Numbered from the stretch's first letter, positions 5,695 through 59,797 are shown. The stretch is DNA of 59,797 bases from Reclinomonas americana ATCC 50394 (GCA_048213135.1 PS015049.1:67499-127295); one strand, 5' to 3'. Made by a program: numbers and translations. The notes: generated by a model from the sequence alone, not told the origin.

Positions 5695-8600
5695 CTACAC
5701 GGTGCCGTCGACATGCGCCGCGGGTGCAGCGGCCGTCTCTGTCGCTGCCACAGGCTCTACGGTGGTGGCGGCAAGTGCGGCGGCGACGGCGTCTGGAGGC
5801 GGGGCTTTGGTGTAGGCGCGCTCGTTCTCGGCCTCCCACTCGTCGCGTAGCGTGCGCAGGAACACGGCGGGCGTGTCGAGCTGTTGCAGGAAGAAGCCGC
5901 ACGGTCGCTGCCAGTCGACACTGACGGTCACGGCCGCGCCGAGTTCGTGCGGTGGTAGGCAGAGCGGCGAGGTCACCACGTCTTGCCGCGGCATGTCGCC
6001 GTACACAATCAGTTGCGCAAAGCCACGAATGGCCGCCACCTGCGTGACCATCGGCGATGAGTGTTAAAGAGGGGGGAAAATCTCAACTCGTGACACACTC
6101 ACCGCCGTGAGGCACATGGGAAAGTTGATTTGCTCGCCATCCATGACAATGAGGTGCAGCTTGCTGCGCGGGAATGAGCGCCACTCTTGCCAGCAACCCA
6201 ACAGCGGCATGGTGACAAAGAAGACGCGTGCGGCGGAGGTGACATCCACAGCCTGCAGAGGATGAGTAAATGCAAGTGCATGGCCTGTCGTGCCACTGGC
6301 GTGTTCTTGTTCATTGCACACACCGACATGAGCGATTGCGTCGTCGACTCCACATGGCACCACTCCTGCTCGGCGACAAGCGAGTCGGGACGGGGTAGCC
6401 GCGAAATACCGTCGGGTGCGTCTGCAGTGTATCGCGAGATGAGCGTCGCCACGCAGTGCGCATCATGCTTCGAGAGACCACACACACACACCTTCGCGGA
6501 CAGTGACCGACGACAAGCCCGGCAGCAGCTGCAGGTATCGCGCTCGCGTAGCCAGCATCTGTGCATGACTCGCAAACAGCAGCATCACTTTCGAGTCGTG
6601 AAGCATGGTGGTCAGCAAGTCCACCATGCCCAGCTGGAGCAGCTTGCGACCTGGAAGGAGAGGGAGTGGCATGTTGAGAGCGAAGACACAATCACGGTGA
6701 GATAGAGGAGTCAACACAATAGCGCACCACACTGGGGCAGGGCTCGGATCAACAGCACTCCGTGCACCAGTGACTTTTGAAGCGCCGTCTGCTGTCCAAT
6801 GGTCCACTTTTCAATGCCCCACAGCGGACACCGTGCAGTCAGGTGGCTCTGCACCGCGTGGCGGCTGAACCGCTCGGTCAGATTCATGGTTTTGCCACTG
6901 GCCACACGCTTCATGCGCTGCGGCAGTGCCGGGTCGGTGAGGAATCTGGGGGAGGGAGAGAGGCGGCCGTGAGGAAACGCGACGAGGGTGGAGGCACGAG
7001 CATACAACGCACCGACGCAGACTGAGGCCAAGAACGCGCAGCAGCCAGTATCTGGCCTCGAGGGGAGCGGTCTCGAGGTGAGCAAGTTGGGCGGCGTACG
7101 ACAGCTGTCGACAAGTACGTCGTGAGAAGAACCGCAATGCAAGAAGAGAGCGACAGGGAAAATTCCCGCACCGGAGGACGACCATCAATGAGACCATCGA
7201 GTGCGGTGACCAGTTGGCGCGCGTCGACTTGCATCGGCTGCAGGTAGTTGAACGGGTCCTGCGCCACCACGGAGCGAATTCTCTCGTCGCCCATGTGCAA
7301 CACGTGCTGCCGCCCAATGTCGATATTCTCAAAGGCCGCCAGCAGCGGCACCATGAAGCGCACGTCGCCGGCCGCGTAGTCGAGCAGCACCTCCTTCATC
7401 GGGCGCACTTCCCACAAGTTCCACTCCTTCCGCATCATGTCCTTGACACTGATCTGAGTGGAGGGAAGTTAGACGAAAGAGGTGCATGCTACTGTACTCC
7501 AGCAGGATGAGGCGCGAAACTTTCTCGTCCACAATCGGCAAGTTGAAGAACTTGAGCACGTCATTGACACCGCAGCTGTTGCCCTTTTTGTGTGCGCCGA
7601 CGCGACGCTGGAGATCATTCATGGCCAGGAACGTGTCGAACACGCCGCGCGGAATGATGCCAAACTGGTGCGACAGTGCCGCCGTGTCGCAGCGCAGGTC
7701 GTGGATCACCTTGATGATATCCTCGCGCTCCAAAATCACTCGAAGCAACTGTATGTGAATGAGGGAAGGCGGTGAGGTGAGAGAGAGAAAAGGAGAGAGA
7801 GTGTGTGAGAGAGAAAGGGAGTGCGAGAGAGAGGGATGAAGAGGGAAAGGGAGAGAGTGTAAGAGAGAGGGCGACCATTACGTCAGCGAGCACAAAAAGA
7901 GAGAGGGATGAGAGACAAGACAACGCATTCGTGAGAGGAGAGAGAGGGGGGGGATGGAGGGAGGGAGCGAGAGACGCAACGCTGTCCTCTCGCGCCAGCA
8001 TTGTCGGCTCAACCACCACCTAACAAAGCAAGCATGGCATCAGGCGAGGGGGAACAACAACAGCAGCATCACAGCAGTAGCAACAGTACGCACGTCAAAC
8101 AGATACACATTCTGATCGACATCAGACAGTTGCATCAGGCAGAGACGACCTCTGGACATCGCAGTGAGCACACACCACGAACGCTTGCACAAACGATTGA
8201 ACTCACGTGTATCCGAGACTGACACCCTCACAATCCCAGCCAAGCACAGTGCTCGAGTCCAGCAATCGTTGCGACACGGCCTGGCACTGCGCGTACGTCG
8301 TGATGTAGTGCGTCTCGGCACTGTCGTTTGGCACAAACGGGATTGGAGCTATGCATGCACGCAGATGAGACGATCATCAACCATAGGAACAAACACGCAG
8401 TCGATCGCGTCCACGCACGAGGATCAGGCATGCGAATGGTTCCCGACGACTCTGCGCACAGCATCATTCGTCAGTGGAGAGAACGAAGAAGAAGGAGAGA
8501 GAGAGAGAGAGAGAGGAGGAGGAGGAGGAGGAGGAGGAGGAGANNNNNNNNNNNNNNNNNNNNCGGAGGAGGAGAAGAAGAAGACGGAGGAGGAGAAGAA

Positions 8601-9035
8601 GAAGACGGAGGAGGAGAAGAAGAGGAGGAAAACAAGGAGGAGGAGGAACCCGCAGCAGCAAACAACAGGAAGCCCGTCGCACCAGACAGCAACCTCCGCG
8701 TGATGGAAAGCGTATGCAACGCATGATGCAAGCCAATCATGATCTTGTTGCCAACCTGGGCAACCAAGGTAAACAACACACTCACATAAACTCATTCCAA
8801 AAAAACACACTCGTCGGACTTGCCTCCTTATCCTTTGCAGAGGCATATGAGAGACACCGCAGCATCGCAAGTGACTCGCCCACCTGTGCCTGTGCTGTCT
8901 CCACCTCGCGACACACAGCCTGCACAAAGGAAGAGAAGTGAGAGACAATGAGAGGCAGAGAGGGTGAGAGGGGGAGAGAGAGAGAGTGCGTGTGTGTGTG
9001 TCTCAGTGTGCGTCTGCGTCTGTCAGTCAGTCTGC

Positions 9036-9076
<41 letters not shown>

Positions 9077-10966: not shown

Positions 10967-13900
10967 TCAGTTCTCTTGCTCGTCGGTGTCCGGCTCGGCG
11001 TCCTTCTCGCCACCGTCGTCGTCGGGCAGCACAAAGTCGTCCTCCACGGCGTACCTGCATTGTTGGTGAGTGTCACCACGTGGGAGTGCATCATCCTGCG
11101 GGAGGCGAGACGCAACAGAATCTTGGTGACTTCCTCGAGGAAAGGTGGCACGGCGTCGGGGGCGGCCTCCTGCGTTGTCTGGCACATAATCTCAATGTCG
11201 CGCAGCTTGCCAAAGTAAAAGTCACGCTCGCGCTCCAGGCCGTCCACAATCAGCTTCAGCTCGGCCAGTTGTTGTTNNNNNNNNNNNNNNNNNNNNNNNN
11301 NNNNNNNNNNNNNNNNNNNNNNNNNNNNNNNNNNNNNNNNNNNNNNNNNNNNNNNNNNNNNNNNNNNNNNNNNNNNNNNNNNNNNNNNNNNNNNNNNNNN
11401 NNNNNNNNNNNNNNNNNNNNNNNNNNNNNNNNNNNNNNNNNNNNNNNNNNNNNNNNNNNNNNNNNNNNNNNNNNNNNNNNNNNNNNNNNNNNNNNNNNNN
11501 NNNNNNNNNNNNNNNNNNNNNNNNNNNNNNNNNNNNNNNNNNNNNNNNNNNNNNNNNNNNNNNNNNNNNNNNNNNNNNNNNNNNNNNNNNNNNNNNNNNN
11601 NNNNNNNNNNNNNNNNNNNNNNNNNNNNNNNNNNNNNNNNNNNNNNNNNNNNNNNNNNNNNNNNNNNNNNNNNNNNNNNNNNNNNNNNNNNNNNNNNNNN
11701 NNNNNNNNNNNNNNNNNNNNNNNNNNNNNNNNNNNNNNNNNNNNNNNNNNNNNNNNNNNNNNNNNNNNNNNNNNNNNNNNNNNNNNNNNNNNNNNNNNNN
11801 NNNNNNNNNNNNNNNNNNNNNNNNNNNNNNNNNNNNNNNNNNNNNNNNNNNNNNNNNNNNNNNNNNNNNNNNNNNNNNNNNNNNNNNNNNNNNNNNNNNN
11901 NNNNNNNNNNNNNNNNNNNNNNNNNNNNNNNNNNNNNNCGAGCGCCTGCACCTTCTTCGAGTCGCCGCTGCCGCTGCCGGAGGCACCAGCAGCACGAGCT
12001 ACAAGGGTGCGTGAGAAAAGGAAGGAGGAGAGGGAGAAGAGTAAGGGTGGGTGTGAGAGACGAAACCAGAGGCTGCCGGTTTCCTCGCGGGTGGAGCCGG
12101 GCGGCTGGGTGCGGCCGAGGCCTCGGCGGCGGGCGCAGCACCAGCAGCACTTGCAGCAGCCGGTCGCGCGACCTGTGTGCGTGCATGCATGTCAGAGGCG
12201 AAAGTTTGCCAATCTGTTTCCCTTCTGCACGCTACCTTGCTGGCTCGCGGAGGTCCCGAGCCCGGTGCGTTTTTCCTGGCACCTGGGAGGAGAGTGCAGT
12301 GAGCACACTTACCATGACAAGAAAACAAAAGAAANNNNNNNNNNNNNNNNNNNNNNNTTGCCTTGTCTCTCTCTCACAGGAGCGGCTCACTGCCAGCTAA
12401 TGCACATTCTGTTCCCTGGTGTGTACTGCGCTCCTCAGGCCCTTCACTTTCTGTGCTGTCTGCTGACTGACAACTGTGTGTGCAGACTCGATCGCACTGC
12501 ACAAGGTCAACTTCAACGCCAAGCTGGAGCACGAGTATGTCAACAACTTCAAGATCCTGCAGGCGGCTTTCAGCAAGCTGAACATCAAGAAGGTGCTCAT
12601 TATTATTCTTGCAGCCTCGCTCGCTGCGCCGCACACGGCGACTGACTGCGCGTGCAGAACATTGAGGTCGACAAGCTCGTCAAGGCCAAGTACCTCGACA
12701 ACTTGGAGTTTGTGCAGGCGCGTTTGCTCTGTTGCTGATGATTGTTTTCTCGCTCCACACTTGACTCACCACGCATCTGCAGTGGATGAAGCGGTATTTT
12801 GAGTTGCACTACGACCAGACGCCGTACGACGCCAAGTACGAGCGCGATTCGGCCATTGCCCGCTACAACGGTTTGAGGGCGTGCTGAATGTGTGTGCATG
12901 TGTGCGTCGGGGTACAGTGCCAGAGTGGGTTTCAGAGGAGGAAAAAGCATGGGTACTGCTCCTCGGCCAAGCCGCTCATACATCGTCGGTGCCCTGCATT
13001 GTGTGTGTACGCGTGTGTGCACATGTGTCCACCGAACAGTCAAGCGGCCGGCGTTGACGCAGATCGAAGGTCTCCAAAAACTCCCCATGCAAATCTCTTC
13101 CTGTCATCCTCCCCTGCACCGTCTCTTTGCGCTCTCCTTCTCCTTCCNNNNNNNNNNNNNNNNNNNNNNNNNNNNNNNNNNNNNNNNNNNNNNNNNNNNN
13201 NNNNNNNNNNNNNNNNNNNNNNNNNNNNNNNNNNNNNNNNNNNNNNNNNNNNNNNNNNNNNNNNNNNNNNNNNNNNNNNNNNNNNNNNNNNNNNNNNNNN
13301 NNNNNNNNNNNNNNNNNNNNNNNNNNNNNNNNNNNNNNNNNNNNNNNNNNNNNNNNNNNNNNNNNNNNNNNNNNNNNNNNNNNNNNNNNNNNNNNNNNNN
13401 NNNNNNNNNNNNNNNNNNNNNNNNNNNNNNNNNNNNNNNNNNNNNNNNNNNNNNNNNNNNNNNNNNNNNNNNNNNNNNNNNNNNNNNNNNNNNNNNNNNN
13501 NNNNNNNNNNNNNNNNNNNNNNNNNNNNNNNNNNNNNNNNNNNNNNNNNNNNNNNNNNNNNNNNNNNNNNNNNNNNNNNNNNNNNNNNNNNNNNNNNNNN
13601 NNNNNNNNNNNNNNNNNNNNNNNNNNNNNNNNNNNNNNNNNNNNNNNNNNNNNNNNNNNNNNNNNNNNNNNNNNNNNNNNNNNNNNNNNNNNNNNNNNNN
13701 NNNNNNNNNNNNNNNNNNNNNNNNNNNNNNNNNNNNNNNNNNNNNNNNNNNNNNNNNNNNNNNNNNNNNNNNNNNNNNNNNNNNNNNNNNNNNNNNNNNN
13801 NNNNNNNNNNNNNNNNNNNNNNNNNNNNNNNNNNNNNNNNNNNNNNNNNNNNNNNNNNNNNNNNNNNNNNNNNNNNNNNNNNNNNNNNNNNNNNNNNNNN

Positions 13901-14508: not shown

Positions 14509-14555
<47 letters not shown>

Positions 14556-14799: not shown

Positions 14800-17108
14800 A
14801 TGAGCCAGCGTCGCTTTGACTTGACTGTGTTTGGTGCCACGGGTTACACTGGTTACTAGTCCATCGCAGCATGCTTCACTCTATGCATTTTTTCACTCAC
14901 TTTTTTTGTCTTTTTTTGTGTGTTTTGTGTCTCTCTCTCTGTGTGTGTTGTTGTTGTCAGGCACTCTGATTGCCGAGTACCTCGCAAAGCAGCATTACGA
15001 TGCGAGCAAGCTGTGTTTGGCCGGGCGGAGGTGAGTGCTTGCGTGAACGGAGTTGATTGATCGGAGTTCGCATGCACACACGCGTTTCTCTCCGTCTCCT
15101 CTCTCTGTGTCTGTCTGTGTCTCTGTCTGCCTGTGCATGAGTGGCCGAGTGCGCCCTTGTGTCTGTGTGCACTGGCACTTGTACAATGTGAAGATTCTCT
15201 CTCATGATCACTTTGCAGCAAGGAGAAGCTGGAGGCTCTCAAGAAGCACTTGGAGGTGCGTGCATTCTCTCCTCCTCTCTGCCTCTCTCTCTCTCTCTGT
15301 ATCTCGCCGCACACACTTGCCCGACATGCAGAGCATTGAGAAGTCGTTCAATCGCGTCAATTTGCTGGTGGCCAGTGTCGACAATGCCGACGAGGTCGAG
15401 GCCATGATCCGCCTCACCAAGGTCGTTGTCAACTGCGTTGGTCCCTTCTTCCGCTACTCCGAGGTCGTCGTCCGCAACTGTGTCGAACACGGCACTGATT
15501 ACGTCGATATCACGTTGCGTCACTCTCTCGAATCTGCTCCTCTCTGCCCTCACTCATGCGCGAGTGCAGTGGCGAGCCCAACTTCATTGCGCTGATGATG
15601 GACAAGTATCAGGAGCAGGCCGAGCGCAACAATGTGCTCATTATCTCTGCGTGCGGCTTCGATTCGGTGCCCGCCGATGTCGGCGTGCAGTACGCGCGTC
15701 AGCAGTTCGGCATTGATCGTGTGCGCTCCGTCGAGGGCTATGTGTCGTTGAAGAACTTTGGGTTGTCGGCCGGCACGTGGAACACCATGCTGGACAGGTG
15801 GGGCGATGGGGGGAAGAGGGAGAAACGGGGAAGGGGGAGGAAAGGGGCAAGGGGGAGAGAGAAAGCGCAGAGGCAAGAATTGTGAGGGCATGTTTGTGTT
15901 TATGCGAGAAAGCGAAGCGCAGGGAGGCTGAGGAGTATGGCGGTCTCTTGAATTCGTCCACCAGGTGATAGAAGCAGATCTCGTCACTCTCTGTGCTGCT
16001 CGTATCCTCCACTGCATATGGCGTCGGTGTTGCTTCAGCAGACGGAGCAAGCGTCGTATTCGTGTCACATGAGAAGAAGCGAGGAAAGCGTGGAAGCAAG
16101 AAAGTGACACACTGAGTCGTGGTCGGCGCGATGAGAAGGAGAAATGATGTGTCATGTTTTCGTTTGTTGCGGGCACGGCCGTCGCCTTCCGCTCACCATC
16201 GCTTCTCCGACCCCACAGCATCGCCAACGCCAAGCAGATGGCTGCCGTGCGTCGCAAGAGTGCTGGCCCGCCGCCGGCTTCGATCCCGAAGGTCTGCTCT
16301 TTCCACGTACTCCTTTTCCAAACACTCTCACTTTCTCTCACGTATTCTCGCAACCCACAGGAAAAGCGCGTGCTCAAGAAGCTGCCACACAAGTGCAAGC
16401 AGATGGACAACACTTGGTGCATTCCGTTTGCCACCTCCGACCCGTTCGTGGTGCGCAAGACGATTGAGATCCAGGCGGACAAGTCGATGCCCTACTTCCA
16501 ATACGGCCACTACCTGTCGGTCGGCGGTCTGTTCCGACTGATCATCATGGCGCTGGGATTCGCGTTGGGTTGCGTCGATCAGCACGCGAGCAAGAACTCG
16601 ACCTGTGACTCACTTGTGTTCGTGCCAGTGTTCCTGCTTGCCAAGTTCAAGCTCACGCGCGACCTGCTCCGCAAGTACAAGTCGGAGGGCTCGGGGTGAG
16701 TTCCCTAGAGAAAGGGTGTGTGTGTGTGTGTGCTTAACCTTTCTCAACTGTGTGATCTCGGCTCGTGCAGCTCGTCGGTCGAGAGCCGCCAGTCGAGTCG
16801 CTCGAGAATTCTGTTCCTCGCTCGCGACGACAACGGAAAGCTCCTGGGACAGGCGGAGTTCACCGGCGCTGATCCCTATGATGTCACCGCTGTGACTGTC
16901 GTGCAGGCGGCGCGCGTGTTGCTGGAGAAGAGAGTTACGTTTGCAACGCTTCCGTCCTCTCTCACTCTCACTGTTCTTCTCACACGCTGTTGCGCAGGAG
17001 CAACTGCCGATGCGTGGTGGTGTGGCCACTCCAGTGTCGGCACTCGGCGACGTGTACACCGACTACCTTATGCGCTGCCCGGAGATTGCCTTCCGCAAGG
17101 TGGAATGA
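14800..17108 (+). CDS. SCCPDH: Saccharopine dehydrogenase-like oxidoreductase (SCCPDH family), multi-exon
   Basis: FDLTVFGATGYTG, LAGRS, VVVNCVGPF, YVDITGEP, ACGFDSVPAD, SAGTW, GADPYDVTA, GGVATP. Confidence 0.9.
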
Positions 17109-21949: not shown

Positions 21950-23040
21950 TTACAAACCCAGTGCCGCAATCTTTTCCTCCACCTGCCGTGTCACCTCTGC
22001 CAGGTGCTGCTTGGACTCCTCCAGCGTCACCCGCGCCAGTGCCACGTCTGGTGGCAAATCGAAAAACACTTTCAGCTGCGAATCACGCGACGACAACTGC
22101 TGCTCCAGCTCCGCCAGCTCCTCCGCCAAATGCACAATCGAACGGTGTGTTGTGTCCTTGTCGACGCCGCTCTCGCTGACCAGTTGCTGCGCGCGACTGC
22201 GTCAGCCAACTCCCTCCCACCAATGCCTTCTTCATCGCTTCCGCTGTCACCCACCTTCAGATTCTGCACCGTGACCTCGTACTGCTGCTGCTTGCCGCGC
22301 AGGTAATCCAAGTTCTTTCTGCGCGTCTCCATGGTGGTCTCCAGATCGTCGGTCAGCGATTCGATCTCCGCCGCCTGCGATCGCACGTGCGCCAACTCCT
22401 CGGTCGCCGTGTGTCGCGCAGCGGCCTGTAATGAGCGCTGCGTGGCGAGTTCGGCCACCTCTGCGTCCTCCACCTCGTCCATCTCCTGCAACAGGTCGGA
22501 GAGTGCCACCAAGTACCTGCACTCACGAATCAGCAAACACGAGACGAAACGCAGGGCGATGTGGGCGCTCCCGCGAAACGTGTTCACACTGGCGTCCTTG
22601 ACTTGCAGCGCCACCCCCAGTGCCGTGAGCGTCTCCAGATCGCGCAAGGCATCCTCGCTGAGATGCTCGTGTGGCACATACCCAGCGTGCTCAATCATGG
22701 TCGCCAGTCGCGTGCCTGTGATCGACGAGGATGAGGAAGGAGCAGAGGGACCGATAGTGACAATGGTGATCGCGCAACTCTCTGCGCGATACTCGGCGGC
22801 CTTGTGTGCCAGATCCTCCATGATGATGCCGTGCTCTGCACTCGCATGCTGCTGCCTTCGTTGCAGCTCGAGGAGAGCGGGAATGGTCACCTGTCGCCGA
22901 TCACAAGTGTGATGATGATGATCATTTCGCGCCAAAATGAACACAGCGCTCACCTCGCTGTCCATCTCAAAGTCGGGAACTCGCTGCGTGTGCAGCACAC
23001 TGCGCAGCCATTCGTTCACCTGCGCAATCTTGCCGTCCAT
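21950..23040 (-). CDS. HAUS1: Augmin subunit HAUS1
   Basis: VNEWLRSVL...VPDFEMD...EDLAHKAAEYRAE...KNLDYLRGK...FFDLPPDVALARVTLEESK, collinear with the remembered HAUS1 pattern after removing four short introns. Confidence 0.85.
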
Positions 23041-23177
23041 CTCTCTCGAGGACGGATGAAGAAGACTGATTGAGGACAACTCGCAGCGGCAGGACCAGCG
23101 CCTGCTTTCCTGAACCTGCATCTTCTGCTTCGCGTGAAGGGTGACCACAAGCTGTGCATCTACCATAGTTTGCTTTA

Positions 23178-26174
23178 TCAGTCTTGCTTTCCAGCAGCTT
23201 CCTTTTCTTGAACATGCACCTGCGCCGTGCGGCGACGGCAACAGCAAGCGCGACAGCAGAGGCGCATAAGTCGCCACACGAACGCCAGCAACTCGGCGAG
23301 CAAGCTCGCTGTGCACAGGCCGAGCAGCGGTGTCTCCCACATGACGCGCAAACCGTACGCCACCATGAAGAACGAAGTCATGGCCGTCGCGAAGAGCATC
23401 GACAGCAAGAACACTGGCCACACCAGCAGCTGCCAGTACCATCGGCGTGACCACGGCCAGCCCTGTGTCGCACCAGTTGAGTTGCAGCGAAAATAACGTA
23501 TAAGTGGCAGGCACACGGCGCACGAACCTCATGCCAGGTGACGAGAATGAGCAGCGGCACATACAACGCAATGAACATAATGGTCACAAAGAGAAGGCCA
23601 TTCCACGTGAAAGTCGCCGAGCTGAACGACAGGATGAGTGCATAGCACCGCGAGAGACGATGACGGGAATGGGAGATGAGGCGAACCGTCCCGACACGAG
23701 CCAGCCCCACCAGAAAATGTGCACCCAGTTGCCGCGGAGGATGCGGGCTGTGCATGCGCAAAATGTGAGGAAGGAACCGCCACACTTGCTGCTGGCGTCA
23801 ACAGAAACTCACCTGACAGCAGCGGCGCAAACCAAAAACTGACACCGGCGACCGTCAGCAGCGTAAAATGGAGTGGCGACAATGCCGGTGCAAAGTTCTG
23901 CACGGTGTGTGAGATGCATGGAGGCAACGAAAAGCCTTTCCTCGCACAGCACGCAACTGTCAACCACAAGAACCGACCTGGAACCAGCTTGCGCAGCAGC
24001 GTGGGCAGCAACACGAGGCCGACGAACGTGCAGAGGTAGGCCACCACAGCCACGGTGCCGATGATGTGCCGGAACTTGAACTGCTGCAGCAACTGAGGCC
24101 ACGATGTGAGGCCACCCCACGCTGCGCATGTGTGCAAAAGAGGAGCGAGTGTGAGCGGTTCCAACACGGGGGAAGCACCAGTAGCGAGACAGCACGCAAC
24201 CGAATTGTTTCGGCTTGTGCGAGCAGTGGATGGTTCGCGTGCTGCACGAGTGAACGGGCTTCTTGTCCACAGTTGCGTCGACACACACTTGCACTGTGTG
24301 TTGGCGATCCATGTCGGCCTCGGTGGCGCACAGCGGCTGTGCACGATTGCCAGTGCACAGGAACGCTCCCGGCTTTGATTCGTCATGCAGTGAGCACGAC
24401 AATGGTGACGTCTCGCTCGAACCGTCCCACACGGCGGTGGCGTGCACCGGCTCGTCGGAAGGCACAAACACCAGCGCACGGACCGTCGACAACTGCAACA
24501 CATCACTCAGCGCCACCGCGCAAATGAGTGACACAGCAGCAGCATTCGTACCTCCTTGTGTGCCGTGTCGTCGTCAAAGACAGACGCGTGGCGCTCATCC
24601 AGCGGATGTGTCACCAAGATCACTGCGTGCAAGCAGTCGATATGTGAATAGAGGTGCTATCGTAGCCAGCTGTATATCACACGCACCTGGCCACTCATCC
24701 ATCTTGGTCTCGACTGCCGACCACGATCCTCGATCGAACGCCACCACGCGGAACATTTGCGACTCTGTGATAGCACGTCAGCACGCGGAGGACGTGAGCA
24801 AAGCAGGTGCTGGGCACGAAACTCTTGAAATCCGGCAACTCCATCTCATGCACCGACTGCACGAACACCACACGCCACAGGTCAGTGTTGTCTTGTAGGC
24901 GCAGGCGACCGACACGAAACTCACCGGTACCACACGCAGCACATTGAACATGCGATGCAGGTGCACGTGTCCGTTGAGGACGAACGACACTGGGTGTGCT
25001 TGCATCAGATCGTCAAGTGTCTCGCCGGCCGAGGTGGTCTCCGCGTCGATCTGCAAGCACACGGTGAGTCCCCATTCTGCACAATCGCCAACGCCAGTTC
25101 TCGCTCACCGCACACCACGGCCAGTGCATCAGCAGCACATTGTGCCGGTACTTGCCGTTCTCCTTGAGCAGAGCCGCCAGCACATCCTGCAACACACGAC
25201 GCACAATCAGGTCGCAGCGGGGAGAGAGAAGAGTGGTGTGCGATAATTCGCTCACCATCGTCCCCGTGTACATGTGACCAATGATGGAGCTGAACGGTGC
25301 AATCACACCGGGCTCGTTGGCCAGATCGACCGCAATGAAACGCACATCGTCGTGCACCGCCACATACACACGCTTGCGATCCAGAATCGGTCCCCACACC
25401 GAGTGCCGCGCCACGAAATCTGCAGGCAGATCTGAGACACAACTCTCGCAGCGTGTCGAGCCACCCCCTTCCTCCTTACCATATTGACTGTCGACACCAC
25501 GTGTCGGAACTCCGTACGCGTCGTGATTGCCGCGAATGTCCAACCTGCTCGATACACAGGTGAACACGCGTCACTTCCCGACAACATGTACATGCAAGAC
25601 AACTCAACACTTTGCTGGGCGAAAAGAGCCCGTTGGTCTCCAACGCTCGCCGGTACGCCATGGCCTCCTCCTCCACCGAATGCCCATGCGTGAACTGCTC
25701 AAAACCCCTCACCATCTCAGCAAACGAAAACTCAGAGGAAAACACGTGTCGACAGTCGACACTGACCACAATCTTGCTGTCGGTCATATCGCCAGTGACA
25801 GTGATCAGTCGCGGATGAAACGTGCGTGCAAGCAGCTCACTCAGATGCGCAAAACGACGCTGCGTGTCGACCTCGAACACATTCAGGTGCAGATCGCTGA
25901 CCTGGTGTCACACATGCACATTAGCAGAAGTCGTGAGGAGAAGGCGGCTGCCCCCAAAAAGCAACTAAACATGGATAAACCACCACAGATCGCTCTTCTC
26001 CTTGGGTGCTGCAGCCTCCAACCAAGGCACCTGCACACCTGCGTAGACACTGTCTGTGCGCCACTGCCACTCGCGACTGTCGACATTGCGCTGAAGCACT
26101 GCTGGATCAATGCTGCCAGTCGCACAAGTGGACACAGCGAGGAGGCAGAGGAGGCAGGCAATGAGCGCGCGCAT
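23178..26174 (-). CDS. TMEM62: TMEM62-like calcineurin-like metallophosphoesterase with signal peptide and C-terminal TM helices
   Basis: WFIHVSDLH, TGDMTDSK, LDIRGNHD, MHWP, LNGHVH, MELPDFK..FRVVAFD, WPVILVTHP; hydrophobic C-terminus. Confidence 0.85.
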
Positions 26175-41993: not shown

Positions 41994-44436
41994 ATGGCGA
42001 AGTCGCTGCCGACCTGTTCCGAGTTGCTCTCCTCCTNNNNNNNNNNNNNNNNNNNNNNNNNNNNNNNNNNNNNNNNNNNNNNNNNNNNNNNNNNNNNNNN
42101 NNNNNNNNNNNNNNNNNNNNNNNNNNNNNNNNNNNNNNNNNNNNNNNNNNNNNNNNNNNNNNNNNNNNNNNNNNNNNNNNNNNNNNNNNNNNNNNNNNNN
42201 NNNNNNNNNNNNNNNNNNNNNNNNNNNNNNNNNNNNNNNNNNNNNNNNNNNNNNNNNNNNNNNNNNNNNNNNNNNNNNNNNNNNNNNNNNNNNNNNNNNN
42301 NNNNNNNNNNNNNNNNNNNNNNNNNNNNNNNNNNNNNNNNNNNNNNNNNNNNNNNNNNNNNNNNNNNNNNNNNNNNNNNNNNNNNNNNNNNNNNNNNNNN
42401 NNNNNNNNNNNNNNNNNNNNNNNNNNNNNNNNNNNNNNNNNNNNNNNNNNNNNNNNCCCCGCACTCTTCCTGCTCTCATCGCTCACTCCGTCTGCCGCAG
42501 TTCCGTGGCGACATTCCCGAGAGCGAGGTCTTCTCGCAGCTGCTCGACATTGAGGAGCGCATCGATCGGCAGCTGAAGCGGCGCAAGCTGGATGTGGCCG
42601 ACGCCATGAATCGCCTCACCAAGGCGCAGGAGATGCTGCAGCTGACGTTTTCCGGCACGCGCATGGTCGACCCCGCGAACCCCGCGAATCAGCACATTAT
42701 GATCTCTGTGGACGCGGGGATGCCGACGCGCACCGTCAATGCGCCGACCTCGTTTGATGAAATGTGCACGCGCGTGGTGCTGGAGGTGATTGTGGCGCCT
42801 GTTTGTGCTCTCCGCGTTTTTTTCTTACCACGCTGCACAGGTCGGTTCGCTGGCCTCGGGCACGTCGGCCGACCAGCTGATGACGCTCGAGTGGGACGGA
42901 GCCGGGCGTGTGCGACCCTCGGCCGACCGGCCTGTGCACACGGGCACGCTGGAGGAGGAGCGAGTTGCGTGACNNNNNNNNNNNNNNNNNNNNNNNNNNN
43001 NNNNNNNNNNNNNNNNNNNNNNNNNNNNNNNNNNNNNNNNNNNNNNNNNNNNNNNNNNNNNNNNNNNNNNNNNNNNNNNNNNNNNNNNNNNNNNNNNNNN
43101 NNNNNNNNNNNNNNNNNNNNNNNNNNNNNNNNNNNNNNNNNNNNNNNNNNNNNNNNNNNNNNNNNNNNNNNNNNNNNNNNNNNNNNNNNNNNNNNNNNNN
43201 NNNNNNNNNNNNNNNNNNNNNNNNNNNNNNNNNNNNNNNNNNNNNNNNNNNNNNNNNNNNNNNNNNNNNNNNNNNNNNNNNNNNNNNNNNNNNNNNNNNN
43301 NNNNNNNNNNNNNNNNNNNNNNNNNNNNNNNNNNNNNNNNNNNNNNNNNNNNNNNNNNNNNGCACTGTACCTTTCTCGCGCAAGTCCACGCATTCATTGG
43401 GTGTGCTGTTGCAGCCGACACGCCTGGCGTGGCGCTTGCCATATGTGGCCGCTCAGTTCTCGATGCCACCTGCCACGCTGCCGGCCTCGGCGGGTGTGGA
43501 CACGAAGCGGCCGTATCTGTGGCTGCGCGTGCACATTTTCGTGAACCACCAGCCGCCGCGGTTTGCACTGTCGCCGGCTCTGCGGGTGCTGGTTCCTGGC
43601 ATCGACCACGGCTCCAAGGCCGACATTGTGGAGGCTGTGTGGACGCACCTCAAGCAGACGCAGCAAGTGGACTTGACCGGTGACGGTGACTGTGTGATCC
43701 AGGTGGCCAGCGAAGCATTCCAGCAGCTGTTTGGTGGCCGCACCGAGATTCCCGTGTCGCGGCTGGTGGCTGAGATCGAGAGGCACCTCACGCCGCTGCC
43801 GCCCGTCACCATGGAGCTGTGGTATTCGTGAGTCGCTGTTGGGGGTGTTGTCTGCGCACTGTGCGGCTGGCGGTGGCGGCTGACCTGTGAGTGTTTTTGC
43901 CAGGCACTCGATGAATGCGCCCGACAGCAAGAAGCTGGAGACCAGCATCTACACGACGGGTGTGTCGACCGTGGAGGACGATCCGCGAACGGAGCAGGAG
44001 GTACGCATATGCAACCGCCGGCCTGCCCGTACGTATTAGCTAATGTTCGTGATGTGCCGCAGATTCGCGAGCTGAATCGACAGATTGCCGCCGACATTGA
44101 GACCATTACGCAGCGACGGCAGCGGCGAGCGTTCCTGTCGCAGTTTGCCGAGTCACCGGTGCATGTGTTGGAGAACTTTGTTGTGCAACAATCACGTAAC
44201 TTGCAGGTTTTGTGGTGGCGCGTGGGGTGGAAGGAGGCGTTGCAAGTGTCTGGCTGACCGTGGTGTGTTTCTTGTTTTGACAGGCTTTCCAGGATCGCGA
44301 GAGAGAGCTGATGCGCCGGAGTGCATTGTTCACGAAGCCGTGGATCATGGACGCTGTCTCGCACTACGCTGCCGTTGAGCGGCAAAAGCGGAAGCAGCAA
44401 CAGCAGCAGCCGCCGCCACCACCGCCACCGCAATAG
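41994..44436 (+). CDS. SMARCD: SWI/SNF subunit SMARCD/BAF60-like (SWIB domain); two internal gaps, start uncertain
   Basis: IPESEVFSQLLDIEERID...PPRFALSPAL...IVEAVWTHLK...HLTPLPP...RRAFLSQFAESP...QQSRNL...RRSALFTKPWIMDAVSHY. Confidence 0.85.
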
Positions 44437-44924: not shown

Positions 44925-45228
44925 AACCTGCTCAAGACGGAGAGCTTGGCCAACAAGCCGTTCCTCATTCTCGGCAACAAGATCGACGTCGGCCGTGTCA
45001 ACGAGGAGCAGCTGAAGCGCATCTTGGGCATTGAGAACGAGTGCACGGGCAAGGATGTTGCGTGTGGGAGGCTTGTGTGTGTATGTGTGCGGAGAGAGAG
45101 AGAATTATTGACTCGATGTGCAGGGTGGCAAGGCGGAGGGCAAGCGCCCATTGGAGGTGTACATGTGCAGCATCAAGCTGGAGATGGGCTACGCCGAGGG
45201 TTTCCAGTGGCTGGGCAAGTACCTTTGA
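44925..45228 (+). CDS. SAR1: SAR1 GTPase, last two exons (on the gap-bounded, apparently inverted contig 44892-45541)
   Basis: NLLKTESLANKPFLILGNKID...RPLEVYMCSIKLEMGYAEGFQWLGKYL*. Confidence 0.92.
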
Positions 45229-46664
45229 AGAGGGAGAGAAAGAGAGTAGCGTTTGAAGATTGTTTGTGTATGTGTCTTGGAAGCGAAGCAGTGCGAGAGA
45301 GAGTGATGGTGAAAATGGAGTTGAGAGCTTGTGCAGACAGAGGTGGTCAGTGAAGAATGATTGGTCGTTTTTCCCGTGCGCCTCCTTAGAAGAGCAAAAA
45401 ATGCGAAAGGAGTGCGGCAGCGCCAGGTCACTCGGTCGTTCGATGAGGCCACATGGCGGGCCATTTTGAATGTTAACAAGGTATTGCAAAGTAAGCGCAC
45501 GCCATTGGCCTTTCGCTTCAGTTGTGAGTCGTGTGGTGGCANNNNNNNNNNNNNNNNNNNNNNNNNNNNNNNNNNNNNNNNNNNNNNNNNNNNNNNNNNN
45601 NNNNNNNNNNNNNNNNNNNNNNNNNNNNNNNNNNNNNNNNNNNNNNNNNNNNNNNNNNNNNNNNNNNNNNNNNNNNNNNNNNNNNNNNNNNNNNNNNNNN
45701 NNNNNNNNNNNNNNNNNNNNNNNNNNNNNNNNNNNNNNNNNNNNNNNNNNNNNNNNNNNNNNNNNNNNNNNNNNNNNNNNNNNNNNNNNNNNNNNNNNNN
45801 NNNNNNNNNNNNNNNNNNNNGAGGGGGAAAGGGAGAGGGACAGGAAGAGGGGGCAAGGTGAGGGACAGGGAGAGGGGCAAGGTGAGGGACAGGGAGAGGG
45901 AGAGGGAGAGGGGGCAAAGGTGAGGGACAGGGAGAGGGGGAAAGGGAGAGGGACAGGGAGAGGGGGCAAGGGTGAGGGACAGGGAGAGGGGGTAAGGGTG
46001 AGGGATGGGGTGAGGGACGGGGAGAGGGGGCAAGGTGAGAGAGAGGGGGCAAGGGTGAGGGATTTGATAGAAGGGCGAGCGCATACAGTTACAAGATTTG
46101 CTGGTGGAAGAACGGAACCCCGTAACAACGGAAGGAGGAGAGGAGCGCAGCAGCAGACACTGGATGCAGAGAGTCTGAGAAGACAATTTGCCGCAGTGAG
46201 CATCACCCACATCGGCAGAATCACACAGCATGGAGACACGCATTTGCTACAAACAGAGCACAAGACGCAATCCCTTGCAACACAGACAGCCCAGACAGCA
46301 ACCCACGCGACATTCATGCATCCGAGAATGAGAGCGAATCACACCGGTGATGCAACACCACGAAATATGCCCTCCTGCCAACTAACTCTCCACCACCAGC
46401 ACACGCCACTCTCTACTAGTGCGCTCGACGACACACGCACACACACACGAACGGAGTTGAGGAGTGACCAGGGTGCTCAAATCCGTTGAAACAAGCAACA
46501 AAGAGATGTGCCAACTCCTCACGGACAACAACAAGCACACAACACACTGTGTGCGCTACGTCACCCCCAAAAAACACACAACAGCAGAGAGGACAAGGAG
46601 GAGCCCCGACAAGTCCGTCTTTTGCGCGACGACATGTCCACTCTATTTGCGCGTGTGACGCAAC

Positions 46665-47208
46665 ATCCAACTCAGCGCGCGACTCATGAATGCGGTCCTC
46701 GTCGCTCGTGTCCACCAAGAACACAATAGCATCACATGTGGCAAAGTACGACGGCCACAGGCGGCGAGCTGAAGAAAAAAGAGTGAGAGACATGTTTGAG
46801 CGCGACTCAAGTCACACACAGACAGAGAGAGAGCCGACCTGGTCCATGGCCACCCATGTCCCACGCGTTGAACTTGATGTTGCCCATGGAGAACTCCTCC
46901 TCAGCTGCCACGCACAAGGTAACAGTCAGTCAGCATTCATGTCACAGGTCTCGCTCAAAGTGTGTTTTGCGCAACTTGGATGTGCGGTGGGCATCGCCTG
47001 CACCTTTCGATCATCCTTCAGTGTGTGCAACAGTGTCGTCTTGCCGGCATTGTCGAGTCCCAACAGCAAAATCGTTCCACTCTTGCCATACAGACCTACA
47101 CACAGCAACAAGAGCTCTCAGAAGTCTCACTCTTATTGAGAGGCTCCACAACACGTGAGGCTCACCAAGTGCGGTCAGCAGGCTGTAGAACCATCGCACC
47201 AGAAACAT
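46665..47208 (-). CDS. SAR1: SAR1 GTPase, first four exons
   Basis: [19 protein letters not shown]...[18 protein letters not shown]...PTAHPTEEE...WDMGGH..ARRLW...AIVFLVD...ESRAELD. Confidence 0.93.
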
Positions 47209-49197: not shown

Positions 49198-49204
49198 TGT
49201 ACGG

Positions 49205-52200
49205 ATGAGTGAGCGTGGACCGCTTGTGTCGCTTGTGTTTGAGCGTGTGGATGTGCTGCGACCGGCGACACCACCGCCTCCACCAGTGATTGCAGAGGAG
49301 CAACAAGTGGAACACGAGCAGGAGGACGAGGGAGAGGAGAAGCAAGTGGAGGAGGAGTCACCTTCTTCTCCTCCTCTGCCACCACCTCTCACTGGCACAG
49401 TTGCGCTGTCTGTTGCTCAGTCGCTGCTTGCTCTTCTCTGTTGTTGACTGTTGTTGTTGTTGTTGTTTCATAGTCTGTGTATGCCAGTGGTGTGTTGTAT
49501 GAGGGAACGGTGGCAAGTGAGGCGGGTGTGCCGCACGGGCATGGTGTGTTGACGTGGCCGGATGGGACGCGGTATGAGGGGCAGTTGGTGAATGGGCAGC
49601 CGTCGGGCGAGGGCGAGCTGGGGTGGTGAGTGGAAGGGAGAAGGAAGAGGGAGAAGGAAGAGGGAGGGGAAGGGAAGGGAAGGGAGGGAAGGGCGATGAG
49701 GGAGAAGGGAGAGGCGTGCATGGAGAATGCAGTTAAGGAGTGAGAAAGAGAAAGAGAAAGAGAGCAGACCGGTTTACGAGCATGCAATGAGAGAGAAAGC
49801 GATCTGGCATCAGAGAAGCAAGCAAGGCCACTGAATGGGAGAGGGAAGGCGGAAAAGAGAACCTGGTTGAGGCTGACAGGTCAACCGATGGTGCGTCGGT
49901 GGAGCAACGAGAGGGAGTAGAAGCAGGCTGATGGGAATGCAGAGAGACCTGGCTGGCATCAGAAACAGACGAGCGTGGGAAGGGGGAAAGAGACAGACCG
50001 ATAGGCATCGAGCACGACACCAGCATTGGTGTAGAGTTCTGGTCAGTAGAAACAGAAGCACTGTGGGAGGCCGACTGATCTGCAAGGAAGCGATGAGCCG
50101 AGAGCAGGCAGCAGACGCTGATAGAAAGAAAGGCAGAAAGATTGACAAGCAGCATCCAAGACAGCCGTGAGGGAGAGGTCTGCTGAGACGAAAGACTGCC
50201 AGCACGACGCGGAACGCGTGGGAAAATGAGAGAGACAGGTGGACACGCGCCGGGTAGCGAGGGAGTGATCTCAATAACGGGAGGCGAAGAGCAGAACCGA
50301 AAGCATGCAGACATGCTCTCTTTCTTGTCCTTTCGTGTGTCTCATCCTTCTCCCTCCCCCGCCTCCCCCCAACAGGCCCAACGGCTTCACATACCGCGGC
50401 AGTGTGTTGAAGGGACAGCGGCACGGTTGGGGTCGCCAATTCGCACCCGACGGTGGAGTGCTGTACGAGGGCGAGTGGGAACTGGGTTTGCGACACGGGC
50501 GCGGCAAGTTTGTGTATCGCACACCGAATGGGGACCACACGTACGACGGCAAGTGGCAGCACGGGCAGCGACACGGGCGTGGCGTGATGACCTACAGCAC
50601 CGGCAACGTGTACGACGGCGAGTGGACGCACGATTGCATCACGGGTCACGGCTGCATGTCGTGGGACGGTGGGCGAGTCACGTTTGATGGCGAGTGGCTG
50701 AATGGCATGCCACACGGTGTGGGAGTGCACACGGAGCAGCGCGGTGTCTCGGGCTCCGGGGGCAAGTCACTGGCCAATTGCTACAATGGCGAGATGGTGC
50801 ACGGAATGCGCGAGGGCTCGGGTACGATGAAGTACGCCAACGGCTCATCGTACACCGGAGCATGGCGGCAGGACAAGAAGGTGCGCCACGCGACTAGCGC
50901 CCTGTTGGATTGATTGTTGTTGCTCACACGTGCAATCTGGTCGCAGCACGGTTTCGGGTCGTTTATGAGCGAAATGGGAGCGCTGAGTCGCGGCATGTTT
51001 GAGGAGGATCGCTTCCAGTACAGCTGCGAGTCGCCAGTGGCGGCGTCGCTCGAATCACCCCCGCACGACTCGGACGACACCTCTGGTGCCGTACCGCCGT
51101 CGACTGCCGCATCGGCGCCCACGATTGCGTTTGTCGAAAACACCCCACGAGCACCCAAACCACCACCAGCACCATCGGCAGCAGCGTCAGCAGCGGGAGA
51201 CCAACACTCCAGTCGCAAGGCGGCAGACGACAAGAAGAAGGCCTCGTCCACCAAGAACACGGCACGCTCCGGCAATCCGAGCGCACCGCCCTCGGCTGCA
51301 CCGTCCACCGGCACCGCTGTGGTGGCCGTCACCACCAATTCGCCTTCAGGCACACCCGTGGTGCGCGCCACGGATTGTGCGCGTGCGGTCGGCCGTCTTC
51401 GCACGCAATTCATCGCCCTGGAGGTATCGGATCTGCTGCCGCCCGGCACCAGTTCCAGTGCCGTCGACATGGTGCGCAATGTGCTCTCGCAAAACTACGG
51501 TGAGCTCGATGGAGACGGGGATTCTCCTTTTTTCATCATATCTTCGTAGCCTTCTCACTTCTTCCTCCTGTCTGCAGATGCACTGCGTGCCCTGTTCCAG
51601 TTCTTTTCGTCCAAGGATCTGGCCGGTTCTGTGGCATCGGCACGCTCGCCTTTCCAGCGTCGTGCTCGATTCTCGCCCGTGGATCCCACCACATTCAGCA
51701 TGTCGGCGACGGCCGAGAGCAAGTTGGTGGCACTCGCCGCCATTCACATGCCATGCTTGCCCGATGAATCGCTGCGATGCTCGCTGCAGGGTCCCGGCAG
51801 TGCCACACCACCAGGAACGGCGCTGGAGTTGTGGCAATCGTGGTTGATTTTCCGTCGCGCGGGAGTGCAGGATCAGAACACAAGTATTGGTGAGGAGACG
51901 GGCGAGAGAAGTGAGCAGAAGGAGGCAGGAGGCTCACCCCCTCCCTTTTTCATGTTCGCAGCTGTCATCGACCGCATCCTGTCACGCATGGCGCACGATC
52001 GACTGATCGATACCAAGCGCAACGACGCCACCGCACACGCTCCGGTGATGCAAGTGTCGTTCCGCCAGTTTGCCGAGTCACTGGTACGACTGGCACATCA
52101 CAAGTACTCGCAGTCGGTGTACACGATGCAACCGGATCGTATGCGCAGCGAGGACGCAGCTCCACTGCACGAAAAGGTGGCGATGCTGTTTTCGCAGCAC

Positions 52201-52937: not shown

Positions 52938-52978
52938 ACGAGTACAGTTGTCCTCGCGTCCTTTCTGTTTCATCGACA

Positions 52979-53176
52979 ATGGCGAGCGATGGCCAGCAGT
53001 TGTCGCTAGTCATGATGGCCATGCCCTCTGTGCTGATTGTCATCGCGGTGGTCTCCCTCGTTGCCACCATTGTCAAAGTGGTGCTCTCTGTGCTGCGCAC
53101 TGGCAGCAGAGCAAGCAGGAGACATCGACCACCAGCACCGATTGATCGCCCAGCTCTCCTTGGTGAGGACACACAC

Positions 53177-53216
<40 letters not shown>

Positions 53217-57409: not shown

Positions 57410-58092
57410 TGTTGCACACACTGCACAAAACGAAGAAGATAAGAGTGATTGAGGAGCTGCTTGGTTGATCGGAAGATGCGCATGAATTCGCTCGAGTTGC
57501 AAGCTCACGTATCCGAGTCTGCTGGTTTGCTGTGAACGGGTTCGGCTGCAGGGAAAGCACGAGCGAGGAGTGGATTTCGAGTTCACGGTTTGCGAATTCG
57601 CGAAGGTTGACCTTGAACTCGGAAGTTGCAGTGCGTGCGCTGTGAATCTGGCAGGTTCACGGACCCGTATCTCTTCATCTGCTTTCAGTTGAGGACGGGC
57701 TCCAGCGGGTCCGGAAGAGCATGCAAGCGCACCTGCGTTCGACTTCGGGGAATTCGAATTCGGATTCGATGTCGCAACCGGGATTTGCTCGTTTCTGTAA
57801 CTCTAAAGCTGCTCGTGCAGCACTGATCCACTGCAGCTGCCCTTCACCGCACAGACGGACAGAAAGCCGAGCCGCGACCATCCAATATCGATATCTGCAT
57901 TCTGTCGTCCGTCCGCCTCTGCATCCTTATACCCAGCGAGCTGCTCGTAGAACCTACCACACACCACGCCCTCCGCTGCAAGCAACAAAAGGAAGCCTCT
58001 CCTTTCTCCTCTTCTTGCATGAACATTCGTCGATTGGCAATCCGAACTGAGCTCGAATTCACCGCACACATCGCGACACACACGCACAAGAA

Positions 58093-59797
58093 ATGGCGTT
58101 TGTGGACTTTGTGGCACCGGCGCTTGAGTTCGCCAAGAAGGCGGTGGCGGACGATGAGGCCAAGGACTACCCAAATGCCTTTCAGAACTGTTGCGCGCAC
58201 GCATACACACAGACATCTGACATTCTCTCTCTCTTTCACTCACTGTGTGTGTGTGTAGACATGCGTTCCTCTGAGTACTTTCTCACGGCGATCAAGCATG
58301 AGAAGGCAGAGGCGCGCAAGCGGCAACTGGAGAGCAAATTGAAGGAGATTGTCACGCGCATGGAGGCCATTCGGGAGTTCCTTGATAAGCAGGCGCAGGA
58401 AGGCAGTGGCAGTGATGGAACGGCGATGAGGTGTGGAGATGATGATGTACTCTTGTGTGTGTGTGAGAGGGAGGGGGAGGGAGGGAGGGAGAGTGTGGGG
58501 CCGGACAACAAGAGAGGGAGAGAGAGGAGAGAAGGGAGAGAGAGAGAGAAGGGGGGAAGAGAGCGAGGGAAGGGGAGTCTAGTGCACAGAGCGCATGGAG
58601 GGTTGGGGGAAAGACTGGCATTCAATCTCTCTTTCTCGTCCCTCTCTTTCTCATCCCTCTCTCTCTCTCNNNNNNNNNNNNNNNNNNNNAGCATTACACC
58701 TGTTTCCCTCTTTTTTCTCTCTTCTTTCTCTCTCTTCCCTTTCTCTCCCCCTCTCTCCACCTCTCCCTCTTCCTCTCGCTAGATTGAGACAGAGTATTGA
58801 GGACTGACAGAGAGAAGACAGCGATTCACTCTCTCCGACTGGGTTCACCTGCATGTTGAGAGTGTCTGTGTGCTCTCTTCCTCTTCCATCTCTTCCGCTG
58901 TCTCTCCCTCCCTCCCTCCCTCCCTCTCGCTGGATTGGCGGCCGAGTATCGAAGACTGGCAGAGAGAAGATAGCGATGCACTCTCTCCGACTGGACACAC
59001 TTGCATGCACGAGAGTCTCTGTCATATCTCTTTCCCTTCCATCTCTCCCATCTCCAGTCGTGTTCTGAACGATGCGCTCTCTCCGCAGGAATCGCAAGGC
59101 CGGCGATCCGAGCGGCGACGACGAGAAATCCAAGATGAAGGCCAACTTGAGTGGTGCGTTACTCGGCGTGAGCTCTCTCTCTGTCCGTCCCCTTCAATCT
59201 CACTTCCTCCNNNNNNNNNNNNNNNNNNNNNNNNNNNNNNNNNNNNNNNNNNNNNNNNNNNNNNNNNNNNNNNNNNNNNNNNNNNNNNNNNNNNNNNNNN
59301 NNNNNNNNNNNNNNNNNNNNNNNNNNNNNNNNNNNNNNNNNNNNNNNNNNNNNNNNNNNNNNNNNNNNNNNNNNNNNNNNNNNNNNNNNNNNNNNNNTCC
59401 TCCTCCTTCGCTCTGCAGAGGCCTTTGTGGCGGAAAAACCCAACGTCAAGTGGGACGACATTGCCGGTCTGGAGGGCGCCAAGGAGGCGCTGCAGGAGGC
59501 TGTCATTCTGCCCATCCGTTTCCCGCAGCTCTTCACCGGCAAGCGCGAGCCATGGAAGGGCATTCTGCTGTACGGGCCACCCGGCACAGGCAAGTCGTAC
59601 CTGGCCAAGGCCGTGGCCACCGAAGCCGACGCCAATTTCTACTCGGTGTCATCATCAACGCTGATGAGCAAGTGGCTGGGCGAGGCCGAGAAGCAGGTGG
59701 CGACGCTGTTTGAGATTGCACGCGAGAATGCGCCCGCCATTATCTTTGTCGACGAAATCGACTCGATGTGCGGTGCGCGTGGCGAGGGCGAGAACGA
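58093..59797 (+). CDS. VPS4: VPS4 AAA+ ATPase (MIT domain and start of the AAA domain; continues beyond the window)
   Basis: [14 protein letters not shown]...[74 protein letters not shown]...IIFVDEIDS. Confidence 0.95.
58775..59050. repeat. ~150-bp direct duplication in a VPS4 intron
   Basis: ctcgct.gattg...gagtat.ga.gactg.cagagagaaga.agcgat.cactctctccgactgg at ~58775 and ~58925. Confidence 0.8.

Follow-up and report, generated by a model that had tools for sequence, protein, structure and literature searches.

A candidate second class of 5′ splice sites, displaced by one base, among the short introns of a Reclinomonas americana scaffold

The window analyzed here is a draft scaffold of 59,797 bases from Reclinomonas americana ATCC 50394 (GCA_048213135.1 PS015049.1:67499-127295), with a G+C content of 58% over determined bases, 17 runs of N, and genes packed densely on both strands and interrupted by numerous short introns. 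We found that, beside the ordinary 5′ splice sites (donors), these genes carry many donors that begin with GTT and in which the conserved intronic block (T, then G, T, or A, mostly C, then G, then T or C) lies one base further into the intron, the T at +3 being invariant. These sites behave as introns and are abundant as a class; their extra base is specifically T, and the exon end lacks the G preference of ordinary donors. We give an even chance to the reading that these are genuine short U2-type GT-AG introns whose donors form a second abundant class, read by the spliceosome in a single shifted recognition register.

The original prediction had listed 20 such donors, and a string check found every GTT heptamer at the first intron base and on the strand named for it (Table 1). 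Twelve of them read GTTGCG(T/C), five GTTTCG(T/C), and one each GTTACGT, GTTGAGT, and GTTTAGT. As had also been claimed, the exon ends in G at only three sites (12066, 16569, and 24200) and in AG at none, and three of the introns are in frame and free of stop codons (16569, 60 nucleotides (nt); 22579 and 22778, 63 nt each). We traced an AG acceptor for 19 donors, which gives 18 introns of 56-79 nt and one of 232 nt; the twentieth donor, at 46664(−), runs into a gap-bounded contig and finds its AG acceptor on a neighboring, apparently inverted contig at 44924/44925(+). All 20 sites therefore start with GT, and an AG closes each of the 19 traced introns as well as the one reaching the neighboring contig, as in U2-type GT-AG introns. 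A YTNAY-like motif stands just 5′ of the acceptor in most of the printed contexts, as judged by eye rather than counted. Minor, U12-type introns begin with (A/G)TATCCTT, and none of the 20 donor strings resembles such a 5′ end.

Table 1 Donors of the shifted class in the window; a slash marks the exon-intron junction
Feature	Coordinates	Strand	Donor	Length (nt)	Evidence
Shifted intron, SCCPDH-like gene	15514..15569	+	cac/GTTGCGTC	56	Blind gene finder; homologue alignment
Shifted intron, in frame, SCCPDH-like gene	16569..16628	+	tgg/GTTGCGTC	60	Homologue alignment
Shifted intron, SCCPDH-like gene	16934..16997	+	aga/GTTACGTT	64	Blind gene finder; alignment
Shifted intron, in frame, HAUS1	22716..22778	−	aga/GTTGCGCG	63	HAUS1 Pfam profile
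Shifted intron, in frame, HAUS1	22517..22579	−	cac/GTTTCGCG	63	HAUS1 profile
Shifted intron, SAR1	46905..46975	−	caa/GTTGCGCA	71	Arf profile
Shifted donor, SAR1	46658..46664	−	gat/GTTGCGTC		Arf profile; acceptor ttcacag/AAC at 44924/44925(+)
Shifted intron, SAR1 C-terminal part	45057..45123	+	gat/GTTGCGTG	67	Blind gene finder
Shifted intron, VPS4 MIT domain	58190..58258	+	act/GTTGCGCG	69	Blind gene finder; MIT profile
Shifted intron, EB1 C-terminus	11055..11116	−	tct/GTTGCGTC	62	Blind gene finder; EB1 profile
Shifted intron, metallophosphoesterase-like (TMEM62-like) gene	25902..25970	−	cat/GTTTAGTT	69	Blind gene finder; joins FIH/VSDLH
Shifted intron, TMEM62-like gene	25545..25608	−	agt/GTTGAGTT	64	Blind gene finder; joins SPSK/VLDIRGNHD
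Shifted intron, TMEM62-like gene	24765..24822	−	aga/GTTTCGTG	58	Blind gene finder
Shifted intron, TMEM62-like gene	24122..24200	−	tcg/GTTGCGTG	79	Blind gene finder
Shifted intron, gene of unknown family	28776..28838	−	aca/GTTTCGTG	63	Blind gene finder
Shifted intron, CT-rich, 3′-5′ exonuclease-domain gene	7749..7980	−	agc/GTTGCGTC	232	Blind gene finder
Shifted candidate, 3′-5′ exonuclease-domain gene	7454..7520	−	aaa/GTTTCGCG	67	Motif-aware pass
Shifted candidate, low-complexity EB1 linker	11999..12066	−	ctg/GTTTCGTC	68	Architecture only; contig gap-bounded
Shifted candidate, FAM32A-like gene	26398..26456	+	caa/GTTGCGCG	59	Architecture; upstream exon ending ...LKLKGELLKEVNGDGS
Shifted candidate, MORN-repeat gene	49400..49473	+	aca/GTTGCGCT	74	Motif-aware pass; blind pass took 49357
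Extra shifted candidate beyond the 20, TMEM62-like gene	23898..23957	−	aca/GTTGCGTG	60	Motif-aware pass only
Possible shifted intron beyond the 20, SWIB-domain gene	44180..44283	+	ttt/GTTGTGCA	104	Blind gene finder

The motif is not over-represented in the window: both strands together hold 39 copies of GTTGCG[TC], where third-order Markov simulations predict 32.8 ± 5.6, and 74 of the whole heptamer class, where 67.1 ± 9.1 are predicted. Such strings are thus expected near many exon ends by chance, so donor use had to be tested independently of the motif. For this we used a dynamic-programming gene finder that was blind to it. Its three-periodic Markov exon model was trained on Pfam-supported frames and then on its own output; a donor needed only GT, with the exon end and donor positions +3 onward (+3 to +8) unscored, while acceptor scores combined the AG, a pyrimidine at −3, and a YTNAY motif with a prior on intron length. 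A version without the length and branch priors fused adjacent genes and produced many long false introns, and was replaced.

The blind pass predicted 83 introns, of which 74 measure 45-110 nt, and recovered 11 of the 20 listed sites; on the reversed sequence the same gene finder predicted a single intron. Class heptamers with T at +3 were used as donors in 11 of 74 cases (14.9%), compared with 0 of 31 for the same heptamers with A at that position, 1 of 110 with C, and 2 of 132 with G (T against the combined controls, 3 of 273, P = 4.6 × 10−6). The same preference held for GTTGCG[TC] alone (6 of 39 against 1 of 91 controls, P = 0.003). With 83 of all 7190 GT sites chosen, the class was picked 13 times more often than the average GT site. 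Among the listed sites that the blind pass missed, the three in-frame introns were undetectable by design, 46975 and 46664 belong to SAR1 exons that it left unmodeled, 12066 and 26398 were unmodeled as well, and another donor was preferred at 7520 and 49400. In place of the 7520 intron it took 7497 to 7449, and the exonuclease profile fits both models alike. For the extra candidate at 23957, it joined the same acceptor to a donor at 23984, which lies 27 nt upstream.

Homology at single genes provided a second line of evidence. We scanned exons singly and compared profile coordinates across the junctions. Removal of the intron leaves a product that is collinear with the profile or the homologues, exactly so at 9 of the 20 sites, including all three in-frame introns. 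HAUS1 matches its Pfam profile in three pieces, 23-59, 62-101, and 105-190, with split codons between them: the match upstream of 22778 stops at position 59 and is followed by one beginning at 61-62, and at 22579 the middle piece is followed, across a split codon, by the piece from 105. As the pieces are collinear, both 63-nt in-frame segments match no profile position.

Similarly, in SAR1 the first exon ends at position 48 of the Arf profile, the second and third match 51-68 and 72-105, and the fourth takes the profile up again at 105-106; the codon split at 46975 corresponds to Arf position 49, and residues 2-19 of exon 2 match 51-68. These coordinates fix the introns at 46975 and 46664, as well as a donor at 46838. 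The SAR1 junction at 45057 is compatible with homology: the flanking exons match solved SAR1 chains and the junction falls within a loop of variable length, here 3 residues longer than in yeast SAR1 and 2 shorter than in the human protein. In-frame retention of this 67-nt intron is impossible. In VPS4, positions 4-25 and 30-56 of the MIT profile are collinear across 58190, and the spliced product is collinear with an intronless VPS4 on a metagenome contig of 59% G+C (L002:732-1454), whose AAA domain is 74% identical to that of the window. The metagenome scan with the VPS4 AAA exon returned 80 loci with a best identity of 79%; it revealed no evident close relative and no additional sequence from this genome, and L002 was the one locus of use for comparison. 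For EB1, the profile is covered from 1 to 38 of its 41 positions at the exon end before 11116, and L-Y-A and an acidic tail follow in the next exon.

For the SCCPDH-like gene, HMMER, run exhaustively with a single exon as query, returned 771 matches, and we aligned the product with 24 full-length homologues in MAFFT, 14 rows of which were printed. At 15514, tblastn with homologues ended query residue 111 at 15511 and resumed with residue 113 at 15571, and the junction DYVDI/T/GEPNF is gap-free in the MAFFT alignment. Retention of the in-frame intron at 16569 would create a 20-residue insert that is absent from 13 of the 14 printed homologues and represented by three residues in the other, while its removal leaves the alignment gap-free. 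The junction LLEKR/EQLP at 16934 also fits, and it adjoins a short stretch of variable length with gaps in all alignment rows. A comparison with solved structures found no match for two SCCPDH exons and chance-level matches for two TMEM62-like exons; Pfam searches of single exons gave nothing for the TMEM62-like exons or for most SCCPDH exons; and a homologous-protein search run with one TMEM62-like and one SCCPDH exon returned no homologues. The TMEM62-like gene owes its family label to a weak Atlas lead (Metallophos, score 0.88), and the name TMEM62 is tentative; the FAM32A-like label comes from one weak FAM32A profile match in a later exon (E = 0.061). Taken together, homology and the blind pass give 16 of the 20 sites support beyond gene architecture and the motif-aware pass described below, and they support the GTT sites as real introns, within the reach of sequence and homology.

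We next consider how abundant the class is and how it differs from ordinary donors. A second, motif-aware pass, which used two donor matrices derived from the blind set and allowed GC donors, predicted 77 introns and moved several odd donors a few bases onto ordinary motifs, one of these shifts leading to the GC donor at 12718. Adding homology-supported introns that had not been modeled and removing doubtful ones gave a working list of 79 introns, of which 36 have ordinary donors (G[TC][AG]NG[TC]), 22 shifted donors (GTTNNG[TC]), 4 a T at +3 in the ordinary register, and 17 other donors. Predictions below coordinate 1900 were left out, as were those at 27777(+), 42792(+), 58351(+), and 37079(−). 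The last of these, GTTTCGCA in the motif-aware pass, is a false call, as five paralogues use a donor 7 nt upstream. The share of the shifted class is thus 15% among the short introns predicted blind (11 of 74) and 28% in the working list, which brackets the original estimate of about a fifth.

In the ordinary class the consensus is G/GTG(C/A/T)G(T/C); of its 36 donors, 34 have G at +3 and 18 have C at +4, a position usually occupied by A in animals and fungi. Shifted donors carry G (15 of 22) or T (6 of 22) at +4, the position that matches ordinary +3. The description of the class as the normal donor shifted by one proved accurate, in that a U stands at +3 and the block is displaced by exactly one base. 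Aligned over exon −1 to intron +6 of the ordinary donor, /GTTGCGT and G/GTGCGT differ only at the second base, which changes from G to T, and the G at exon −1 of the ordinary class becomes the intron +1 G of the shifted class. The two classes also differ at exon −1, as had been predicted. In the blind set, whose figures are the clean ones, G is found at this position in 16 of 23 ordinary and 1 of 11 shifted donors (P = 0.0024); in the working list, whose figures are partly circular, it is found in 30 of 36 and 3 of 22, and the exon ends in AG in 14 of 36 and 0 of 22. The 3 of 22 do not fall significantly short of what base composition predicts (P = 0.08); the shifted class lacks the ordinary preference for G rather than avoiding G. 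Median intron length in the working list is 64 nt for the shifted and 70 nt for the ordinary class, and the 3′ ends look similar.

Because the shifted heptamer is the ordinary heptamer with one base changed, a single recognition register is the most economical reading. We infer each step that involves small nuclear RNAs (snRNAs). The 5′ end of U1 snRNA would pair with the same seven bases in both classes, with one mismatch tolerated in the shifted class, and the catalytic spliceosome (U6, U5, and Prp8) would then cut before the only GU present, one base upstream. The pairing would be that of rare human shifted-register sites, employed here for roughly a quarter of introns. One register combined with cleavage at the available GU would account for the T-specificity of the extra base, the lost preference for G at −1, and the identity of the rest of the block. 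A stronger form, in which the shifted register is a routine second 5′ splice-site mode of this lineage with co-evolved snRNAs, seems to us improbable; it might involve a U1 whose 5′ end favors C at the +4 position, plus an additional variant of U1 (or U6) suited to donors that begin with GUU.

Several observations weigh against the reading of a single shifted register. The sample is one 60-kb window with about 80 introns, and the working-list statistics are partly circular because the second-pass matrices include positions −3 to −1. Four of the 20 sites (7520, 12066, 26398, and 49400) rest on architecture, to which the motif-aware pass adds at 7520 and 49400, and cleavage before the GTT rests on the GT-AG rule, reading frame, and homology. 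Most class heptamers in the window, 63 of 74, were not predicted as donors, and overall the motif shows no enrichment. The −1 base of shifted donors is A in 9 of 22 and T in 7 of 22, although only A at this position would pair with canonical U1 in the shifted register. C at the position matching ordinary +4 is more frequent in the shifted class (19 of 22 against 18 of 36 in the working list, P = 0.006; 8 of 11 against 9 of 23 in the blind set, P = 0.14), so that the shifted class is not a pure copy of the ordinary block and may be more stringent. Finally, four introns with GTTCGT or GTTTGT have T at +3 within the ordinary register, so tolerance at +3 belongs to the picture.

Of the other explanations, a bulged uridine survives best, and we regard it as rather unlikely. 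Here G+1 would remain in the normal register, one U of +2/+3 would be bulged, and the remaining donor bases would pair normally, first with U1 and then with the ACAGAGA box of U6. Bulging at +3 (or +2) has been validated in human cells (PMC4856993), the bulged register yields as many intron-side pairs as the shifted one, and U6 must accommodate the extra base in any case. A bulge should nonetheless accept any extra base, yet T was used in 11 of 74 cases and A, C, or G in 3 of 273. It would also keep exon −1 opposite a U1 base that prefers G, and G is present there in only 1 of 11 (blind) or 3 of 22 (working list) shifted donors, compared with 16 of 23 and 30 of 36 ordinary ones.

We think it improbable that a dedicated variant snRNA or protein reads the class, be it a second U1 that, in the shifted register, has A in place of C opposite +2, a U6 with a modified box, or an altered form of U1C, LUC7, or Prp8. 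A class of 15-28% of introns is large enough to sustain such a factor, and the shifted donors have their own C bias at +5 (19 of 22). Against this, nothing in the window points to such a factor, an Rfam search of its full length having returned no match, to an snRNA or otherwise, and one U1 that tolerates a mismatch is enough to account for the data. Quite improbable, in our judgment, is a degenerate donor, in which GT is followed closely, at a loosely set distance, by G[TC] and variation at +3 is tolerated; no concept of register would be needed for it. Such a donor could accommodate the 17 of 79 working-list introns that fit neither class, one of which (cag/GTCGGC) is exact by the Arf profile, and the four further introns with T at +3 in the ordinary register. 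However, loose spacing predicts an extra A, C, or G as often as T, which is not what the blind pass found, and the sharp split at −1 indicates two defined configurations. An artefact, with introns mis-traced onto a common GC-rich heptamer or a T added by assembly error, is very improbable and largely refuted: copies of the heptamer are plentiful (GTTGCG[TC] occurs 39 times, close to expectation), and the draft scaffold is broken by 17 N runs and contains two contigs that appear inverted, but an independent blind model prefers the class 13 times over the average GT site, nine junctions are exact by homology, and a sequencing error would leave the exon-end G preference intact.

Shifted-register 5′ splice sites were reportedly described in human introns by Roca and Krainer in 2009, a study cited in PMC4856993; introns of INPP4A and GTF2H1 are reportedly among them. 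In those human sites the displaced block has the form AAGU. As in the window, GU is followed by U at +3 and the consensus block lies one base off; all U1 pairs move by one position while cleavage stays at the GU. Unlike the human sites, which are rare exceptions, the window class makes up between 11 of 74 (blind) and 22 of 79 (working list) introns, and its block is GCG(T/C) rather than AAGU, the likeness in register being drawn from donor sequence. A regular T at +3 is also found in donors of the Entamoeba type, GUUUGU, as it is in the window in atg/GTTTG[CT] of five of six GT2 paralogues; those donors, however, keep G at +5 in the ordinary register, while the shifted class has G at +6.

Shifted and bulged registers are established for human 5′ splice sites, and all validated non-canonical registers together are estimated at 1.5% of 201,541 human sites (PMC4856993). 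Sites of the bulge +2/+3 register (Roca et al. 2012, as cited in PMC4856993 and PMC9311317) resemble the window class in having one extra nucleotide between GU and the +5G-type block, and differ from it in that the window's extra base is invariably T and its exons lack the terminal G of which a bulged register would make use. A view of two classes of 5′ splice sites, weighted toward the exon side (U5) or the intron side (U6), is set out in PMC11732430. It fits the window in two respects, as donors whose intron side is poor tend to be preceded by CAG or AAG and the shifted class combines a strong intron side with the lack of an exon-side consensus, but it includes no one-base displacement of the intron block. 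Literature searches on a GTTGCG-type motif and splicing found nothing relevant, supplementary files, which possibly hold donor logos, lying outside the search; searches on shifted or bulged registers found only human or general work and none describing them as a major class of any genome.

Out-of-register U1 pairing and the choice of cleavage site have so far been studied on a handful of human sites and reporters. If a fifth to a quarter of introns genome-wide had displaced donors, this genome would offer a natural large-scale experiment with thousands of sites, which could address the contributions of U1, U6, and Prp8, snRNA co-evolution, and the origin of such donors. Should the register be a routine second mode, about a quarter of introns would be read by a system that other eukaryotes use only by accident. 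In practical terms, gene finders with a single donor matrix will miss or misplace shifted introns, and unrecognized in-frame ones silently add about 20 residues to predicted proteins.

Other donors in the window depart from the ordinary motif in different ways. The second SAR1 intron (46769-46838, −) has a non-consensus ordinary-register donor, cag/GTCGGC, which the Arf profile places exactly (68 to 72), and several further donors with a poor intron side, counted as "other" above, also follow CAG or AAG. Intron 1 of the SCCPDH-like gene (14852-14960, +), whose donor ctg/GTTACTAG fits neither class, is needed for collinearity of GATGYTG/TLIAEY with homologues. A homology-supported GC-AG intron of 65 nt at 12718-12782 (+), cag/GCGCGT, restores EFVQ/WMKRYF in the EB1 CH domain, and a GT-only model of this intron deletes VQ. 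Six tandem GT2-domain paralogues (30123-41102, −) share two 5′ introns and a micro-exon of ~19-23 nt; their second donor reads atg/GTTTG[CT] in five of them and acg/GTCCGA in one.

A Pfam scan of open frames identified genes or domains for a 3′-5′ exonuclease, EB1, the SCCPDH-like (saccharopine-dehydrogenase-like) protein, a ciliary B9 protein, HAUS1, the six GT2 paralogues, SWIB, SAR1, MORN repeats, IDO (an assignment confirmed by an Atlas search), IPP-2, and VPS4. Gene density and intron size are compatible with published values for a phytomyxean parasite (404 genes/Mb and 4 introns per gene of 60 bp, PMC4471660; mean intron 55.7 nt, PMC2483917; 68 nt, PMC13746701), a likeness that does not identify the organism. 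Spacers between genes are very short, and the gene finder fuses neighbors at 21950-26174 (−), joining the TMEM62-like gene to HAUS1, and at 50313-54415 (+), joining the MORN-repeat gene, an unknown gene, and IDO. The region at 1-1879 (+) is coding-like, with a very weak reverse-transcriptase match (RVT_1, E = 0.094); the introns predicted within it lack a donor motif, and it may therefore be a degraded mobile element. Two gap-bounded contigs, 12358-13147 and 44892-45541, appear inverted relative to their neighbors: the EB1 CH domain lies on the plus strand and the EB1 C-terminus on the minus strand (10967-11274), and SAR1 exons 4-5 lie on the plus strand and exons 1-3 on the minus strand (46665-47117).

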